This document shows positions 27,201-35,010 of a stretch of DNA of 64,000 nt, in pieces. The position numbers and the translations under genes were made by a program. Origin of the DNA: Sarea resinae. Taxonomy: Eukaryota. How positions within the stretch are numbered: position 1 is the stretch's first letter; every line of letters starts with the position of its first letter. The stretch is from NCBI GenBank assembly GCA_026026165.1, contig JAPEUD010000004.1:496001-560000 (forward strand), read 5' to 3'. Below the pieces are notes generated by a model. That model was not told the origin of the DNA, ran no database searches, and saw only the letters and a program-made list of their open reading frames with translations.

Positions 27201-30200
27201 TCTGAATGTACGGAGTACGTAGTGCGCAGTACTGGAGTACCTTCCAGTACGCAGCTATTCGATTTCCATCGATTTCGCCTTCGCTGGTTGGCTGTCCCCT
27301 TCCAGGTATGCGAGGATCCGCTTTGTTCGCCAATCGCACGCCACATCATCGATACCTCAAGGTACGGACACAGGTACATAGCCCGAGGCCTTCGTCCTGC
27401 GCACTACGTACTCTACTTCTACACACGATCGATGAGTCAAAATTCGTACATGCGTGCACTACGAGGAACGGTACTTGGACTTGCTACCTGCACGTACTCG
27501 GGTACTTTGTACGGATCACTTGGGATCTTCGGATCGAAACCTCAAACGACTGCCTGCTCGACCTACCTCGAGTAGCGCCTGCCTATCAAAGAAAGACATA
27601 CAGATCTTGCCAGCACATCATTGCGATAGGTAGATTTAAGCTTATAGACTCACCCAATATTCACCACTAGATGATCATGTGCGGAGAAGAATTATTTGCC
27701 CTCGCTTTTCTGTTGTCAAGTGTCGCGCTTACCCTAGCTGACCATAGCCCTAACTGACGAGAAAATTCTGCCAGTCACGCTGGGGTCTGTTACTCACGAG
27801 TCCCTCCGTGGCTGTCGGAGCCTGCCGAAGGGGCGTCCAACGTTCTACAGGAGGTCTAGGCGTGTACGAGTCTAAGAGGAAATGTTCCAGAGTTCGTCGT
27901 GGGAACCGGGGAGACGTGAGTCCAGCCGGCACTATCCTTGCTGGTACGGGCTCCGCCACATCCGATCCATCTCCGGATAACGTCTTGACTGGACGAGTGA
28001 CGAATACGCAGTAATACGGAGAACATTACGACCGCCTCGAGGCTCATTGAAATCAAGCTCGAGAGCAGGCACTGCAGGCAGCAGAGATCCATTCCATCGG
28101 AGCTTGGTCCCTGGTCATGATCATCCTTCGCATTAGGCTTCCAAATTCGTCATCAGGCCGGCAATTATCTGATACGCTTGCACGATAAGGCGATAGCTCT
28201 TACCACTGATGAGCCCTGGAAACACCTCGATGGGTCATCCGTGGTCGCTCGAGTGCCGAGGTTTCATTTGCCGTGACTCCGTTCTCTTTGTTTACCTAAC
28301 TTGCTGACCGACGAATCAAGCCTTCCCCTTCTGTTTCTCTCTAGATCCTTATATTACAAGCTACTCTTGAAAGTAACGCTCATCCAGCCACCGTTGACCT
28401 CGTTAGCCTTTTGGTGAGAAGAAATCTGCTCAGCTGCTTCATGCTGAAGGTGTGAAGCAGCCTTCGAGAATACCCCGTGACGTCGCTTTTTCGTAGATTC
28501 ATACAAGCTAAATCCGAGCATCAGCACGGCTGAGTCAACTGAGCTTTGACCCTAATAGATGATGTTCATAACGCTCTGGTTTCACTAATGAGAGAGAAAT
28601 CGGAGAATCTGTGATGCGACAGGATTCGCCCGGCGGAGCCACCTTTTCACCGCCTCCACAACACGCGTCCGCCAAGGTTATTTCCCCAGCTCGATTTCAA
28701 GAACTGGGGCTATCCGTGAATGCTGGACTCTCCACGATCCTTCTTACACTCTTGACTGCCTGACATGTCCAACATCTTCGAGCGTTGGTGCCAGCTGTCA
28801 CCACAGACATCTCTTCAGCCTGATTTATAGATATCATCTGCTGTCTCCTATTGCCTTGCTACATAGCCACTCTTCCCTTAAAATCAGTATTCCTTCATCA
28901 TCTGTAACATCCTCAGCCTACGGATGGACTGGAATCCAGAGGTCTTTACTTTCTATACGGCTGGCTACTAACAAAGCCTCGAGATTTTGATCTCCATGTA
29001 AAAATAAGGTGAAGCTTCTAAATCTCTCTAAATACTGAATTGATATATCTCTCTGCAACTGAAATCTCCAAGTGGTCACAAACTTACAAGGTCTATCTTC
29101 TGGCATTGAACGCCTGCTTTCTCTCTGGCGGGTAGGATATTGATTTGCTGCGATGATTGATTGCTCTCTCGATCAATGACACTGGAAACACTGTCTTAGG
29201 TAAACAAGGGCCTGGTGGAACTCGGTTAGGATTCCCGTGACAGTCCCATGCGAGCGACTGGAGCCTGGAAGGGTTCTTCTTGCCGGCCCAAGGCTTTCGC
29301 TGAGGTGCTCTGCTCCAATGGGAGATGTCTGCCTAGAGCCCTAGACTCCAGCGAGCTGTTCTCGGCCAACGGCAGAATGCTTCTCGGCCCGTCTTGGAGG
29401 TTAGGCATTCCCAGCGTGCTTGGACTGTCTCTGACGCGCCCAAATGCTCTCTCTCTCTCTCTCTCCCCCCTACCCCTCTTGAAGTAATTCGTAGGTCTCA
29501 GAGCTGGATGAGAGAAGAATTCTACCTTCGCATTATTATTTTGGTTCCTCGCAAGTCATTCGCGAGGCAAGGTCTTCCCCAGTAGAGCTACGCGCGAGAC
29601 TACATGAGTTGCAGAATATCTACTCGAGTATTCTCTTGGGGATGGAACTTTACTACTCGAGTACTCCCGGCCTGGGCTGGCCATCAGGTGATGTGGTTGC
29701 TTCTTCATCGACCGACCGATGGTTGTCCTGACACACGTCCACACGCTCGTTTGACCAGTGTGGGTTAGGCGCGTGCATCGTGCCTTTGGTCTTCAGTAAA
29801 TAGCCTATTTCGCGTCTGGCTAAGGTGAGGGAATTGTCGTCGTGAGCCGTGCGGATGGAGGTGTGACGGATGGGACCCAGGAGCAGAAGAAGACGACGTT
29901 CTTCGGAGATTGTGCGTGAGGATGATGGCCATGAGATCACAGCCAAAGGCCTTGAACGAGTCGAAGAGAGGCCGGGCCATCTTATGTGGTTGAGTCTCGA
30001 GATTGAGATTACGACCGAGATGAGAGTCCCGTAGATGCCGTCGTCATTGTCGGTGATCCTCTGCCGTCTGCCCAGTAGCATCTCTGGCGTGAGCCGCCGA
30101 CGTAGGATTGACAGCGAGCCAGTCGATCATCGACGACGCCACGGCTTCGGTCGGAGAGAGAGGAAGGTCAAGCCTCTCGGGACGGTGACGGGGCGCGCTG

Positions 30201-31380
30201 CGTGCCGCTGGCTGCATGGATATCAATACTTTACTTGATGTTTTCTTCCTACGTTCAATTCAATTCAATTCAATTCAGTTCATTTCAGTTCATTTCATTT
30301 CAATCGTGACAGGATGATTCCATCGTCACCAAGTGCCACGGCCCTACGATCTCTCCCAGGACCCCGCACCTTGGTGGTCGCCATCTGGAAAACCCCTCTC
30401 CTCCATGCTTTCTCTCCCTCCGGGGCTCCATGATCGGGTTAGAGCTGCAGTAAGGGATGCAAGGTGCAAGGTGCAAGGTGCAAGGTGCAAGGCAAAGGTA
30501 TCGTCACTATCGTGAAATAGCGTCTTCGGGCTCTATAAATCGCTCGTGGTTTGACAGATACAATGGAAGTCACTTGGTCTCTGCCGTAAATGATAACTCC
30601 ACCGTGTTTCGTGCATCAGCGCAGCAGCCAGCCTTGGGGCCCACTACTACCGATTCAGTAGCGGGCGACTCCACCACGCTGCCTCTCTGCCACTCTGCCA
30701 CTCTGCCACTCTACCACTCCCTCACCACTACTACTGTGCACATACCAACCAGCAGTGAAGCCATCAAATCACTATTGCAATCCCACCCCAACTACTGCGA
30801 ATTCGCCCCGTGTCGACTCCGACTCTCCGCTCCGCTGGAACCTTGAATTCGATCAAATCACCAGTTGATCCTTGCCCGCGTTTCTGCCCCCCCCCCCATT
30901 CCCCCCGCCCTAACTGCGCTGCGCTGCTCTGCCCTAAATCTCTTTCGTACATGCCCCAGGGTTGATCACGCTGCTATCAGGACATGTTCGACTAGTAGGA
31001 GCTCTTGGCCTACCGCAAAGTTGACCGGCAACGTCACTCCTCGGGGCCCTGGTGCCTCTGTTTTCCCTCACCGTCCTCCGCCCTTCGACTCTCCTTCAAA
31101 AGCCGCAATTGCCGCCAATCCTCCCCTCGCCGCCCCTTCGTATCGATCAGTCTTGACAGCGACATTGTATCCCAAGAACATCTCCAGCTTCCGCCTTTTG
31201 GCATTTGTGACCATCATCGTGGGCATTGTCTTGCAATTCAATCTGCTCCAATTTCCCTACGACTCGCAATTGAGACGTCATAGCCCCCGCAGTGACTGGG
31301 AATCTTCACTGCTACGCGCTCCCGTGTGCGAACAACCCAACCCATTCTCGACCGACCTTCCAGTCTCCACAGCCAGCAAG

Positions 31381-33219
31381 ATGTCGTTGCTTCGAGAAGC
31401 GAAGCGTGTGGCCGCAGAGTTCGACTACCCGGCGGAGGAGGTGCGAAAAAGTGTCCAGGAGTTTCTCGTGCAGATGGGTCAGTCTCGGAAAGATGCAGAG
31501 ATCTGTTTTCCACAGCGCTGACGTTGGAGAGATAGACGAGGGTCTACAAAAGCCTGGCCAGACGCTGAATCAAATTCCCACCTACGTGACAGCAGTGCCC
31601 AATGGGACCGAGAAGGTGAGGTCTATCGATCAAATGGCTTGAATGACGGCTCATAACGAATCCAGGGTGTCTATCTGGCTGTTGACCTCGGCGGCACGAA
31701 TTTCCGCGTCTGCTCCGTCCGACTACACGGAAACACGACGTTTTCGATGGCACAGACGAAAGTCGCCATCCCTCGCGAACTCATGGTTGCAGAGACGGCA
31801 GAAGAGCTCTTTGCATTTTTGGCGAAACAAATCGAGAAATTCATCCAAGTCCACCACAGTGACCACTTCGAGGCGCACGTCCGACGAAGGCAGACGATGA
31901 GCGAGCCCGAGGGCTACAAGGAGGAGCAGATATTCAGCCTGGGCTTCACGTTCAGTTTTCCCATCAACCAGATCGGTATCAACCGGGGAACCCTCATCCG
32001 ATGGACCAAGGGCTTCAACATCAAGGATGCCATCGGGAAGGACGTCTGCGCGCTGCTCCAAACGGAGATCGACAAGCTGCGTCTCCCCGTCAAAGTCGCG
32101 GCTCTCGTCAACGACACGGTGGGCACGCTCATGGCGCGCTCATACACATCGCCCGGCAAGACGGGCACTTTGCTCGGTGCCATCTTCGGCACGGGCACCA
32201 ACGGCGCCTACATGGAAAAGCTCGACCGAATCACCAAACTCGAGAGCATGGGCGGCGACGCATATGACAAGTCCACGGGCGAAATGATCGTCAACACCGA
32301 ATGGGGCTCCTTTGACAACCATCTCAAAGTCTTGCCGTCGACACCCTACGACGCCGACCTCGACCGCGAGAGCATCAACCCGGGGATCCAGATGTTCGAG
32401 AAACGGGTGTCGGGCATGTTCCTGGGCGAGATCCTCCGGCGCGCGATCCTGTCGCTCGTCAACAACCCGTCGATCGAGCTCTTCAAGGACGAGAACTCGT
32501 CGGAGAACGACATGCGCTCGACGACGTCCATCGCACCCGAATCGCCCCTCTACAGCATGTGGGGCCTCGACACGTCGTTGCTTTCGGTCATCCGTGGCGA
32601 CACGAGCGCGACGCTGAGCGTGACCCGCCAGGCGCTGGAGCGCGACCTGCTCATCAACGCGCCCAGCACCGAAGACGCCGTCGCGGTGAAAGAAATGACG
32701 GTCGCCATCGGGCGACGCGCAGCCCGTCTATCGGCGGTGCCCATTGGTGCCATCGTCCTGTCCTCGGGCCGACTCGGCACCTCTCCCTCGGACGCGAGCA
32801 CGACGACAACGACGACGACGCAACCGCCGTCGACCATGTCGTCGATCTCGTCCTCTCTCCAAGCGGGTGACGTGTCGGCGGCGGCATCGACGGCCGCAAC
32901 GGCCATCTCGTCATCTCTGCCATCGCTGACGCCGCCCCCGCCCGGCCACGCCGCCGGCACGGACGCGTCGTCGTCGGGCGTGTCCGAGGCCGACGTCGTC
33001 GACATCGGCGTCGACGGCTCCCTGGTCGAGTTCTACCCGGGCTTCGAGGACGACCTGCGCGAGGCGCTGCGCGAGGTGCCGGGCATTGGCGCCGCGGGCG
33101 AGCAGAGGATCCGGATCGGTATCGCCAAGGACGGCAGCGGCGTCGGCGCGGCGCTGATCGCGCTGGTGGCCAGGAAGGTGGAGCCGCCGGCTGTGTTCGA
33201 GGATGACGACGAGGAGTAG
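31381..33219 (+). CDS. GLK1: Glucokinase (hexokinase family, GlkA/Glk1 type); exons 31381-31477, 31536-31615, 31666-33219 (576 aa from the AUG)
   Basis: LAVDLGGTNFRV, LGFTFSFP, LIRWTKGF, VNDTVGT, IFGTGTNGAY, NTEWGSFD, FEKRVSGMFLGE, GVDGS and DGSGVGAA motifs; both introns in frame. Confidence 0.95.
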
Positions 33220-33379
33220 TGAGTCAGGAGGTGTTTAGGGGGAGTGCATTTTTTGTCTTGAGGTGTCTTTGTCTTATGTATACGAGCAAATGTCTACATT
33301 TCATGATCTCTATAACTTGTGCGTCCGTGTGAAACTCGCTGTGACCGAGCTACGAAACTAAATGGAGTCATAAGAAGGT

Positions 33380-34454
33380 AAGGTGTTTGAGATATATACG
33401 AGAAACGTCTATATCTTATGATCTCTCTCTAGAAGAATCTTCTTGCATGTCCCTGTTGACGTTCCTGTGACTTGAGATAGTGTTTTAGGATGAATACTAA
33501 AGATCTGTATATCTATCCCTGCCTATGCCTATGCCTATGCCTATATCTCTATCTATATCTATAACATCTTTCCTTGTGTGTCTGTGTGCCTCTGCGTCCT
33601 CTTTGCTGTGACCAGACTAGGCTATCTTGTAGAAAGAAGGAGAGAGAAGGCAAGGCGTTTAGAACAGAGACTAATCTCTCTCTATCTCTCTCTCTCTATC
33701 TCTCTCTTCTGTCTTTTCTTATATGTATCTAGTTAAACGTTCTTCTACTAGTAAGTAAGTACAGTCATTTATAGTAAAAGAAGTAAGAAGAAGAAGAAGG
33801 TAAGAAAGAAGGTGTTAAAAATAATAATAATATATCTCTAAGAAAAGAAAAACATAATAATAAGCCCTAGTAAATAGGTTGATAAGACTTATTCTTTTCT
33901 ATACACTATCTAAGAAAAAGATAGTACTATAAGTCTAGCTTATCTACCTCGGTAGGTTTTATATATATACCTCTTTAGTCTTTACCTTACTTTATATAGT
34001 GTAGCTATAGCGCTCCTTAGATTTTATATCTTTTTTAGAGATAGGTACCTAGGCAGGCTATAGCGTATATTAAGACTAACTAAGGCTAGGATAAAGATAT
34101 ATACCTACCTACCTAAGGTACTTTACCTCTGTATATTTAGAGTAGATTACTACTTTAAGGTTTTTATATCTGTATCTAGCTCTATTATCTAGCTTTATAT
34201 CTAGCTCTACTTATTTACTTACTTTTTACCTTTTCTCTTAACCTCTTTAGTACTTAACCTCTATAATATAGCACTATAGCACTAAACTACTCTAATTACT
34301 ATTACTACTACTACTACTACTACACTATAGCTACTTCTTCTCTAGAAAGGAACTTACCTCTAATTTCTTACACTTACTATAAGATAATATATTCTATCTA
34401 CCTAAGAGTCTTAGCTAGAACTAAAACTCCTAATTAGTTCTTCTTCTTCTTCTT

Positions 34455-34485
<31 letters not shown>

Positions 34486-34607
34486 GAATGAGCTTATTTA
34501 TAATTACATTTATAACTCTACTACTAACACTACTAAGGATAATAATAGTTCTAGTCAATATTTAGCTATAAACTTATACTCTCTCTCTTTTCTCTCTCTC
34601 TATCTAT

Positions 34608-34644
<37 letters not shown>

Positions 34645-35010
34645 AGACCTAAGTATCTACCTAGTGTATGATCTAGAAAGTTATATCAAACTAAGTAGAG
34701 CAAATATAAGGATTATTAGGTAAGCTAGAGAAGGTAGGTATAAAGTACAAACCTAGCTAGATAGGTAGATAGATAGATAAGCTAGGTAAGGCTAGAGTAA
34801 TTCTTTTTTCTTTCTCTTTAGAATAGCTTATAGCAGGTAGGTAGGAACAGGTTTTGCCTGTTTACGATATATACCTTATAAACATTGGATCGGAAAAGAA
34901 AGGAAGAGAAAGGAAAAGAAGAGTGAAAGAAGAGTAGTATCATAGTGTGTGTGTTAAGAGTGAAGAGAGACAAAGGAAGGTAGAAAGAAGAGGTAGAGGT
35001 CTAGAGAGAA
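33380..35010. repeat. Strongly AT/TpA-rich island 3 between convergent glucokinase and C2H2 genes
   Basis: 33720-34830 almost lacks CA and TG. Contains (TTC)n at ~34438-34483, (CT)n, (TAC)n and (GATA)n. No ORF is listed between 33220 and 35025. Confidence 0.92.

Follow-up and report, generated by a model that had tools for sequence, protein, structure and literature searches.

The fungus Sarea resinae probably makes a membrane-tethered form of glucokinase that genome annotation has overlooked. The evidence comes from a window of 64,000 nucleotides of its genome (contig JAPEUD010000004.1, positions 496,001 to 560,000; all positions below are counted within this window and all features lie on its forward strand), in which the glucokinase reading frame continues upstream of the annotated start. 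Sequence comparisons showed that this upstream stretch shares homology with an extension found across the family. The family extension is under purifying selection and mostly without an AUG, and its edge is marked by a conserved CUG or UUG. From these comparisons we infer translation of the extension in S. resinae, the exact start codon, the balancing of the two forms by leaky scanning, insertion into a membrane and the identity of that membrane. We put at about 70% the probability that leaky near-cognate initiation yields a membrane-anchored isoform in addition to the cytosolic one.

Results

The glucokinase gene and its upstream open frame

The glucokinase gene was modeled with three exons (31381..31477, 31536..31615 and 31666..33219, the first starting at the canonical AUG and the last including the stop codon), and the translation of this model is exactly that of the deposited protein P0001. 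This 576-aa protein, which its database record assigns to a metagenome-assembled genome of S. resinae, begins at the ATG at 31381, is 100% identical to exon 1 of the window, carries Pfam PF00349 and PF03727, and has as its best matches proteins named glucokinase at 60-72% identity. By these sequence measures, the gene belongs to the hexokinase/glucokinase family as an orthologue of the fungal glucokinases.

Upstream of ATG 31381, the glucokinase frame is stop-free for 178 codons (30847-31380), back to a TGA at 30844-30846, and contains no in-frame ATG. The final ATG in any frame before 31381 lies at 30984, which leaves 30987-31380 free of ATG altogether. A preliminary description of this locus had reported both the open frame and the missing AUGs, and was borne out by reading of the sequence. 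The stop-free stretch is C/T-rich (37% C and 25% T, with 19% each of A and G), which lowers the frequency of stops and ATGs alike. Of 5000 dinucleotide-preserving shuffles, 1.6% kept the in-phase frame open, 4.5% had at least one of the three frames open, and the final 394 nt were ATG-free in 0.3%. At a rate of 1.6%, such an open frame alone is expected by chance in many genes per genome, and by itself it is weak evidence; what takes the extension beyond chance is its homology to the extensions of relatives.

Profile comparisons with these relatives restricted detectable homology in the window to 31177-31371 and detected no conservation over the first 87-110 of the 178 codons. The preliminary description had treated all 178 codons as extension; the open frame stands, but the coding part is probably limited to roughly the final 70-120 codons. 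The upstream part of the stop-free frame (30847..31107) is C/T-rich, stop-poor and without detectable conservation, with the profile alignment starting at extension residue 111, and is probably transcript leader or promoter instead of coding sequence. Two out-of-frame mini-uORFs are located there, one at 30951..30965 (ATG, three codons and TGA), which matters only if the transcript begins upstream, and one at 30984..30995 (ATG, two codons and TAG), which carries the final ATG before the canonical start.

Homology to annotated extensions

The comparison set consisted of 80 metagenomic orthologue loci and the best 120 annotated homologues. Among the latter, 93 are annotated from the canonical Met, as is P0001, in agreement with the earlier suggestion that standard annotation misses the extension. 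The remaining 27 have an N-terminal extension of 39-329 aa, and 25 of these possess a hydrophobic 19-mer (Kyte-Doolittle ≥1.96) at a distance of 40-67 residues from the canonical Met, with Cys/Pro motifs common to the annotated extensions between the two.

The relationship of the window to these proteins went undetected by single-sequence searches, and profiles were therefore needed. Using phmmer, the 178-aa extension gave a single low-complexity match among 1.84 billion representatives (P0121, query residues 72-110), and a word-based search for longer proteins with the extension plus exon 1 matched only the window's own protein. With a profile of the 27 extensions, from which the window was left out, the window ORF scored best (E 1.2e-4, 18.9 bits) among 1329 six-frame ORFs. 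A profile of 11 extensions, again with the window left out, matched extension residues 111-175 at 36.9-38.2 bits (E 8.7e-11), with the next-best ORF reaching only E 0.49; these 11 were the most similar extensions and were picked after their resemblance to the window had been seen. When an extension-only profile was run against 5.8 billion proteins, at least eight matches were obtained, and all eight of those listed were hexokinase-domain proteins of 596-665 aa, a sample that under-represents the taxonomic spread of annotated extensions.

A predicted membrane helix and its flanking segments

The transmembrane-like helix of the window (LLAFVTIIVGIVLQFNLLQF, 31195..31254) has an uncharged core, holds the Q-F/L motif of the family and falls opposite the relatives' hydrophobic segment in alignments. 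Its top 19-residue Kyte-Doolittle window (LLAFVTIIVGIVLQFNLLQ, from 31195) has a mean of 2.15, confirming the hydrophobic stretch noticed previously at about 31195-31248, and the uncharged core spans 31195-31254. In relatives (n = 24), the corresponding 19-mer means were between 2.04 and 2.96 and the uncharged cores were 19-22 residues long. Transmembrane character was judged by Kyte-Doolittle hydropathy, and on this measure the window helix is predicted to be hydrophobic enough to bind or span a membrane. A structure model of one extension-bearing relative (P0066) had low confidence overall (mean pLDDT 57) and was confident only at the helix (residues 24-42, pLDDT 74-86), the equivalent of the window helix, with pLDDT below 50 in the linker. 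Across the family, the helix starts 29-53 residues from the inferred start and lies about 41-60 residues before the catalytic domain, and the extension as a whole has about 90-128 residues.

Downstream of the helix, a linker of 42 codons (31255..31380) leads up to the canonical AUG and contains a Cys/Pro motif (PVCEQPNPFSTDLPVS, 31321-31368) that aligns with relatives; the linker Cys is at least 90% conserved in a 37-sequence alignment (A2). The pre-helix segment (31111..31194) is Ser/Thr/Pro-rich, with three K/R and no D/E. Its counterparts are likewise net basic and Ser/Thr/Pro-rich, with acidic residues in most lineages, and together contain 168 K/R versus 59 D/E in 24 sequences. Positive charge is placed chiefly N-terminal of the helix, a distribution that would fit a signal anchor of the N-in type as well as a presequence with a stop-transfer segment behind it. 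A bipartite mitochondrial presequence (a matrix-targeting signal ahead of a hydrophobic sorting segment) would have a basic, acid-poor N-terminal part; the family's pre-helix segments are net basic, but those of most lineages include acidic residues. If the helix were inserted into the ER, the charge distribution would leave the kinase domain facing away from the cytosol. Such a location is odd for a glycolytic enzyme and counts against the explanation that we favor.

Selection and start codons in orthologous loci

The preliminary description had proposed that orthologues be checked for conservation of the open frame and of the hydrophobic segment and for a dN/dS below 1, and all three were found; the hydrophobic segment is that of 25/27 annotated extensions, to which the window was aligned by profile. 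The frame was assessed with the 27-extension profile on 50 non-duplicate metagenomic orthologue loci, a set that is phylogenetically non-independent (with some near-duplicates among the metagenomic loci) and whose taxonomy was assigned by best named hit only. The profile matched the in-frame upstream translation in 37 of the 50 loci versus 1 of 250 translations in the five other frames, and the glucokinase frame was open for a median of 125 codons, compared with 35 and 40 for the two remaining forward frames. No in-frame ATG was present in the open frame of 26/37 profile-positive loci.

Constraint was visible at the codon level as well. Six independent AUG-less pairs had 97/64/190 mismatches at the three codon positions over -1 to -300, and 122/125/121 over -451 to -750; indels in AUG-less pairs were multiples of three near the AUG and ceased to be so farther out. 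Together with an extension dN/dS of 0.06-0.37 in unsaturated AUG-less pairs, these sequence comparisons showed purifying selection on the relatives' extension at the protein level.

Conservation begins at a near-cognate codon in strong context (purine at -3, G at +4) in 17/17 loci. At its exact onset, all 12 loci of two groups have a CTG with A at -3 and followed by GCN, and all five lichen-like loci have a TTG with a purine at -3 and followed by GCG. In seven Pleosporales-like loci the extension begins at AUG instead. ATGs in all frames are depleted within the extensions, with 6 in 6051 nt (0.99/kb) versus 21 ± 4 after codon shuffling (0/1000 shuffles as low), compared with 7.85/kb just upstream of the extension and 17.9/kb in exon 1. 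In 7/8 Helotiales-like loci the helix codons are interrupted by a GT..AG intron (54-66 nt), and splicing restores the frame at every intron length; at one locus (L041), no intron was found under the donor pattern, though its two reading frames suggest one.

Candidate start codons in Sarea resinae

The relatives' conserved CUG/UUG start is not recognizable in the window, and a pre-helix profile of the nearest, lichen-like group did not match it significantly (E 0.42, third-ranked ORF). Homology does not fix the start in S. resinae, and the best candidate on sequence context is the in-frame ATT at 31108..31110 (gcc-gca-ATT-gcc, gccgcaATTgcc), which would give a 91-codon extension. This codon has G at -3, G at +4 and GCN as the next codon, a context similar to that of the relatives' conserved CTG-GCN and TTG-GCG starts, and no other near-cognate 5' of the helix combines a purine at -3 with G at +4. 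Other in-frame candidates are a TTG at 31021..31023 (A at -3, A at +4; 120-codon extension) and two TTGs within 31153..31167 that are possible minor starts, at 31153 (T at -3) and 31165 (A at -3). The preliminary description had named AUU 31108, UUG 31153 and UUG 31165; all three are in frame, and the purine/G context holds for the AUU and not for the UUGs.

A confident alignment of either 'AAIAANPP' or 'ASVFPHRPPPFDSPS' to the lichen-like TTG start region was dropped, as MAFFT and reading by eye were in conflict. RNA structure 3' of the candidate start was also considered; 31108-31200 folds worse than its own shuffles (z +1.83), so that a structure-assisted start is not indicated, and no Rfam match was obtained in 30300-31600. 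AUU is usually a weak initiator. Its use as a start has been described for Cryptococcus ArgRS (PMC7049704).

Discussion

Proposed leaky near-cognate initiation and its alternatives

According to the explanation that we favor, scanning ribosomes would sometimes initiate at a near-cognate codon, with AUU 31108 as the best candidate and UUG 31021, 31153 and 31165 as alternatives. Reading on in frame, they would produce a basic Ser/Thr/Pro-rich segment, the helix (31195-31254), the 42-residue Cys/Pro linker and then normal glucokinase. The majority of ribosomes would bypass the weak start and, as the sequence from the near-cognate codon to 31381 is free of AUG in all frames, would initiate at the canonical AUG to make the soluble enzyme. 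With some ribosomes starting at the near-cognate and the rest at the AUG, a single mRNA would give rise to both a membrane-tethered and a cytosolic glucokinase.

Of the other readings, we give most weight, while still considering it unlikely, to one in which the family extension is real but its start codon has been lost in S. resinae, leaving an untranslated leader that has yet to gain stops. The absence of a strong-context CUG/UUG at the homologous position, a pre-helix segment that is not significantly similar to that of the nearest group, and the AUU as sole strong-context near-cognate in the window would all agree with such a relic, as would the slow appearance of stops in C/T-rich sequence. 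The window's 18.9 bits on the 27-sequence profile fall at the low end of the 15-95 bits recorded for clearly constrained loci, a range with which its 37-38 bits on the 11-sequence profile are not directly comparable. Against a relic stand a helix, Q-F motif, near-invariant Cys and Pro motif that are all intact, a conserved part that is fully open, and 394 nt without ATG in any frame, as seen in 0.3% of shuffles. Less probable than a relic is the use of two transcription starts, in which a long mRNA would encode the extended form (still from a non-AUG codon), a short one beginning inside the extension would encode the cytosolic form, and leaky scanning would play no part. Dual promoters are a common alternative, yet the depletion of ATGs over the entire extension, those out of frame included (6 versus 21 expected), is predicted by leaky scanning and not required by two promoters.

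It is very unlikely that the long form is initiated by an upstream AUG supplied through splicing or an alternative transcript, with no near-cognate start involved. The AUG starts of the seven Pleosporales-like loci and the introns inside the Helotiales-like extensions provide precedents, but no intron of the form GT[AG]NG[TC]...[CT]AG and 45-400 nt links any of the window's 16 upstream ATGs (29922-30984) in frame to its extension. Moreover, in relatives conservation and 3-nt periodicity end at the CUG/UUG, with non-3 indels beyond, and the codon 5' of the CUG is often ACN, AAC or ATC, which is impossible as a splice acceptor. Least probable of all is that an ordinary 5' leader or promoter in pyrimidine-rich DNA holds the frame and the hydrophobic stretch by chance. 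The survival of the frame in 1.6% of shuffles, numerous long spurious ORFs in the neighborhood and the failure of single-sequence searches to find relatives would be expected from such a leader; a frame-specific profile match (E 8.7e-11), an extension in 37/50 orthologue loci against 1/250 control frames and dN/dS values of 0.06-0.37 would not, and these profile, frame and selection results effectively refute it.

Relation to known systems

The closest parallel for the arrangement of the frame is cpc-1 of Neurospora crassa, for which N-terminal extensions from conserved near-cognate codons have been described (Ivanov et al. 2017, PMC5487733). As at the glucokinase locus, there is a long, AUG-less, stop-free frame 5' of the annotated AUG, conserved Pezizomycotina-wide and with conserved near-cognates. 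The extension of cpc-1 has regulatory uORFs around it and does not contribute a membrane helix, whereas that of glucokinase bears a predicted targeting or anchoring element. A word search of the main text of PMC5487733 found no mention of glucokinase, hexokinase or membrane.

A second parallel is provided by fungal aminoacyl-tRNA synthetases, with organellar isoforms of, for example, Cryptococcus ArgRS (AUU) and LeuRS (ACG/AUU) arising from near-cognate starts (Wallace et al. 2020, PMC7049704). There, as proposed for glucokinase, two isoforms come from a single mRNA: initiation at a weak upstream near-cognate codon with a strong context supplies a targeting segment, and the cytosolic form begins at the AUG farther downstream. 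Lineages have swapped AUG for near-cognate starts or the reverse in the synthetases, and likewise in glucokinase, with AUG in Pleosporales-like loci and CUG/UUG elsewhere. The synthetase extensions are soluble mitochondrial presequences, in contrast to the strongly hydrophobic helix of 19-22 residues and conserved linker predicted on a glycolytic kinase here.

The glucokinase extension may work like the anchors of plant and mammalian hexokinases, with which the preliminary description drew a mitochondrial analogy, but it is built differently and is not a member of either group by descent. In plants, soluble and anchored hexokinases are encoded by separate AUG-initiated genes, with the anchor at the extreme N-terminus. 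Unlike these, one glucokinase gene is proposed to yield both forms by means of a non-AUG start. The likeness consists of a hexokinase-family enzyme with a single N-terminal hydrophobic helix and coexisting soluble and anchored forms (predicted here), as in the type B enzymes of the Physcomitrella PpHxk2 type and their N-terminal membrane anchor (PMC3045890). Mammalian hexokinases I and II have an N-terminal mitochondrial-binding helix (PMC4613670) and share with the fungal protein an N-terminal hydrophobic element and a membrane localization (predicted here). The mammalian element is made up of the first 10-15 residues of a protein that starts at AUG, and it attaches to the outer membrane either peripherally or through VDAC. 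The fungal segment differs in being of membrane-spanning length and in lying inside an extension of about 90-128 residues. Its helix sits 29-53 residues in, behind a start that is non-AUG in most lineages, whereas the plant and mammalian anchors form the very N-terminus of proteins initiated at AUG.

Implications for glucokinase in fungi

Glucokinase is a core enzyme, and in fungi both glucose sensing and carbon catabolite repression are linked to the hexose kinases. No earlier reports of a non-AUG or membrane-anchored fungal glucokinase were found in a search of main articles that took in few subscription journals. Only tentatively, and with more doubt than confidence, can the S. resinae model be extended to several classes of Pezizomycotina (Lecanoromycetes-, Dothideomycetes- and Leotiomycetes-like loci together with Sarea). 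Each mRNA would then give two glucokinase forms, the longer one starting at a conserved CUG, UUG or AUU and tethered to an organelle membrane, possibly that of mitochondria, as a convergent counterpart of the plant and mammalian mitochondrial hexokinases that has been overlooked in fungal annotation and biochemistry. A mitochondrial tether might favor the enzyme in its access to ATP or let it take part in sugar sensing.

At the homologous start site, one lineage has AUG, several have CUG and a further one has UUG, with AUU as a possible addition in S. resinae, a series that would be useful for studying the evolution of near-cognate starts and the tuning of leaky scanning. If the model is true, gene models that begin at the first AUG miss an extended glucokinase systematically, and glucose phosphorylation would be partly compartmentalized across a fungal group that is very large and takes in lichen formers as well as species associated with plants.

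An open frame upstream of glucokinase

Glucokinase is encoded on the forward strand by three exons (31381-31477, 31536-31615 and 31666-33219), the translation of which is exactly P0001, the deposited protein of 576 aa; P0001 has both hexokinase Pfam domains, and the database lists it as a hypothetical protein from a Sarea resinae metagenome-assembled genome. The deposited gene model begins at the canonical AUG and lacks an extension. Upstream of the ATG at 31381, the same frame continues without a stop for 178 codons, as far as 30847 (previous stop TGA, 30844-30846). It contains ATT 31108, TTG 31153 and TTG 31165 and no ATG; whichever frame is read, the nearest preceding ATG is at 30984. The most hydrophobic 19-mer, with a Kyte-Doolittle mean of 2.15, begins at 31195. 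The sequence matches the preliminary description of a long ATG-less frame with near-cognate codons and a hydrophobic segment. Two tiny out-of-frame uORFs, 30951-30965 (MPQG-stop) and 30984-30995 (MFD-stop), lie just 5' of the ATG-free zone and would matter only if the transcript begins upstream of both.

Several features of the surrounding DNA were also observed. Short tandem repeats of the (GGTGCAA)n and CTGCCACT types occur in the upstream intergenic DNA (30452-30492 and 30684-30715). Within the C-terminal half of glucokinase, a Thr/Ser/Ala/Pro-rich low-complexity insert (32790-32990; TTTTTTQPPSTMSS...) differs in length between homologues and explains much of their length variation. Just 3' of the gene (33250-35000), G+C falls sharply to 27-42% and short tandem repeats appear (e.g., CCTATG at ~33520), possibly marking an AT-rich region of repeat origin.

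Pyrimidines dominate the extension stretch (C 37%, T 25%), which makes both stops and ATGs scarcer. Among 5000 dinucleotide-preserving shuffles, the in-phase frame was still open in 1.6%, at least one of the three frames was open in 4.5%, and the last 394 nt lacked an ATG in 0.3%. The open frame alone barely exceeds chance, and at these rates a similar frame is expected 5' of many fungal genes, so comparison with relatives was needed.

Conservation of the extension in relatives

Of the best 120 homologues of P0001, 27 have an annotated N-terminal extension that places 39-329 aa ahead of the canonical Met. In 25 of these 27, the extension includes, 40-67 residues ahead of that Met, a hydrophobic 19-mer (Kyte-Doolittle 1.96-2.89) that mostly ends in Q-F/L and is followed by common Cys/Pro motifs; the other two are gene models beginning inside or past the helix. 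Named carriers within this set include Hymenoscyphus albidus as well as diverse Dothideomycetes (Lophium, Mytilinidion, Periconia, Pleomassaria, Myriangium, Paraphoma, Coniothyrium, Ampelomyces, Lindgomyces, Neophaeotheca and Oleoguttula). A profile of the 27 extensions, with the window left out, placed the window ORF first of 1329 six-frame ORFs (E 1.2e-4). A profile of the 11 most similar extensions matched it over extension residues 111-175 (31177-31371) at 36.9-38.2 bits (E 8.7e-11; second ORF, E 0.49), with mild circularity as its members were picked after similarity had been seen, the window itself not being in the model. When 5.8 billion proteins were searched with a 37-sequence extension-only profile, all eight matches listed were hexokinase-domain proteins of 596-665 aa. 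One annotated glucokinase, P0079 (Oleoguttula sp., 865 aa), has 329 aa of N-terminal sequence and also PF08030. Its gene model has probably run the upstream gene into glucokinase across the open AUG-less extension, illustrating how such a frame can mislead gene prediction.

Orthologous loci were obtained by scanning metagenome contigs (80 loci, the canonical AUG being placeable in most), and counts refer to the 50 that remain once duplicates, and loci with less than 332 nt of upstream sequence, are set aside. The 27-sequence profile matched the in-frame upstream translation in 37 of 50, including one locus (L001) that is not independent because it matches the extension of P0105, a profile member. 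The remaining five frames were matched in 1/250 cases, a locus (L054) in which an intron shifts the frame. Open runs of at least 90 codons were found in-phase in 35/50 loci and in the other two forward frames in 10/50 and 1/50, with median runs of 125 versus 35 and 40 codons. No in-frame ATG occurs anywhere in the open frame of 26 of the 37 positive loci, and seven of the 11 that bear one belong to a Pleosporales-like group (ATG 103-125 codons upstream).

Loci without the extension are mostly distant paralogues (<50% identity), the rest being a few orthologues from unplaced lineages (L015, L043 and L049). In L034 (2249-2500), another orthologue from an unplaced lineage, an 84-codon extension begins with AUG and contains a hydrophobic segment of its own, RPLLLLAALLLGLVHSLV. 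This extension scored 4.0 bits on the family profile, which is not a match; its anchor was either gained independently or has diverged very far from the family form. In L045 (514-687 and upstream; 'SPFGD..' group), a stop codon immediately follows the helix codons; possible causes are an intron that went unrecognised, an error in the sequence or decay of the extension. Seven Helotiales-like loci (L004, L006, L011, L022, L041, L054 and L078) share a short element upstream of the extension, ~330-420 nt before the canonical AUG. It reads 'PANCGF', 'PAKCGF' or 'PRQLWL' by frame, so the conservation is of the DNA and not of a peptide; a role in the promoter or leader is possible. The conserved peptide 'ITKTSS..RRA.SP' follows it.

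Selection on the extension

Across six independent pairs of AUG-less loci, the summed mismatches at codon positions 1, 2 and 3 were 97/64/190 in the 300 nt before the AUG and 122/125/121 over -451 to -750. Indels near the AUG were multiples of three and became irregular farther upstream; in a pair whose extension starts with an ATG ~330 nt upstream, the first non-3 indel fell at 337 nt, which validates the method. From the inferred start to the AUG, dN/dS was 0.06-0.37 (Nei-Gojobori, unsaturated pairs). Additionally, a GT..AG intron of 54-66 nt breaks the helix codons at one common place in 7/8 Helotiales-like loci, and its removal brings back frame and helix at any intron length modulo 3. Taken together, mismatches, indels, dN/dS and intron show, at the level of comparative sequence, that the extension is translated in the lineages compared, and the family-wide extension is almost certainly coding. 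The preliminary description had proposed non-AUG initiation and named a conserved open frame, a conserved hydrophobic segment and dN/dS below 1 as its comparative tests, all of which it passed.

Probable non-AUG initiation and the candidate start codon

The 5' edge of conservation is marked by CTG with A at -3 and a following GCN codon in 9/9 Mycosphaerellales/Myriangiales-like loci and in all three complete loci of an unplaced group, and by TTG with a purine at -3 and a following GCG in 5/5 Lecanoromycetes-like loci. A splice acceptor at this edge was ruled out, the codon before the start often being ACN, AAC or ATC. ATGs were scarce in the extensions of 18 AUG-less sequences (6 in 6051 nt, 0.99/kb; none in 13/18); their density is 7.85/kb over the preceding 300 nt and 17.9/kb in the remainder of exon 1. 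Codon shuffling expects 21 ± 4, and 0/1000 shuffles were as low as observed, a count that overstates significance as the sequences are not independent. Avoidance of AUG in every frame fits ribosomes that skip a weak start yet need the canonical AUG, and supports leaky scanning on one mRNA, whereby ribosomes passing the near-cognate would reach the canonical AUG.

In the window, the helix, Q-F motif, near-invariant Cys and Pro motif of the conserved part are all preserved in the glucokinase frame. Its start region did not match the pre-helix profile of the nearest group (E 0.42), and two possible alignments of it conflict. Ahead of the helix, only one near-cognate, ATT 31108, combines purine(-3)/G(+4) with a GCN next codon, making it the best candidate start, for a predicted 91-codon extension. 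The other near-cognates of the preliminary description, TTG 31153 and TTG 31165, stand as alternatives only, as does TTG 31021 (A at -3). For 30847-31107, the first 87 codons of the frame, the preferred reading is a leader that composition keeps free of stops. No canonical intron in the window would place an upstream AUG in the frame. No stable RNA fold was found after ATT 31108, nor any Rfam family match in 30300-31600.

Predicted role and known systems

Across 24 sequences, a net-basic, Ser/Thr/Pro-rich pre-helix segment of 29-53 residues (K/R 168 versus D/E 59) precedes an uncharged helix core of 19-22 residues, followed by a linker that spans ~41-60 residues and holds one or two conserved Cys. 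In the structure model of the homologue P0066, which is poor overall (mean pLDDT 57), the hydrophobic segment forms a helix (residues 24-42, pLDDT 74-86) with low-confidence flanks. We infer a putative single-pass membrane tether; its charge pattern would suit an N-in signal anchor as well as a presequence with a stop-transfer segment.

The proposed mechanism is of a known kind: near-cognate-initiated N-terminal extensions occur in Neurospora cpc-1 (PMC5487733) and add a targeting element to Cryptococcus tRNA synthetases (PMC7049704). Searches of openly accessible main texts and abstracts gave no account of a fungal glucokinase with a non-AUG or transmembrane extension, and the words glucokinase and hexokinase do not occur in the main text of the cpc-1 paper (PMC5487733). 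The predicted outcome recalls the membrane-anchored hexokinases of plants (PMC3045890) and mammals (PMC4613670). The extension shares neither their anchor position nor their AUG start. It is not a member of that class by descent, though it may work like those anchors. Overall, it is probable (roughly 70%) that non-AUG translation in Sarea resinae gives a membrane-tethered glucokinase isoform beside the cytosolic one.
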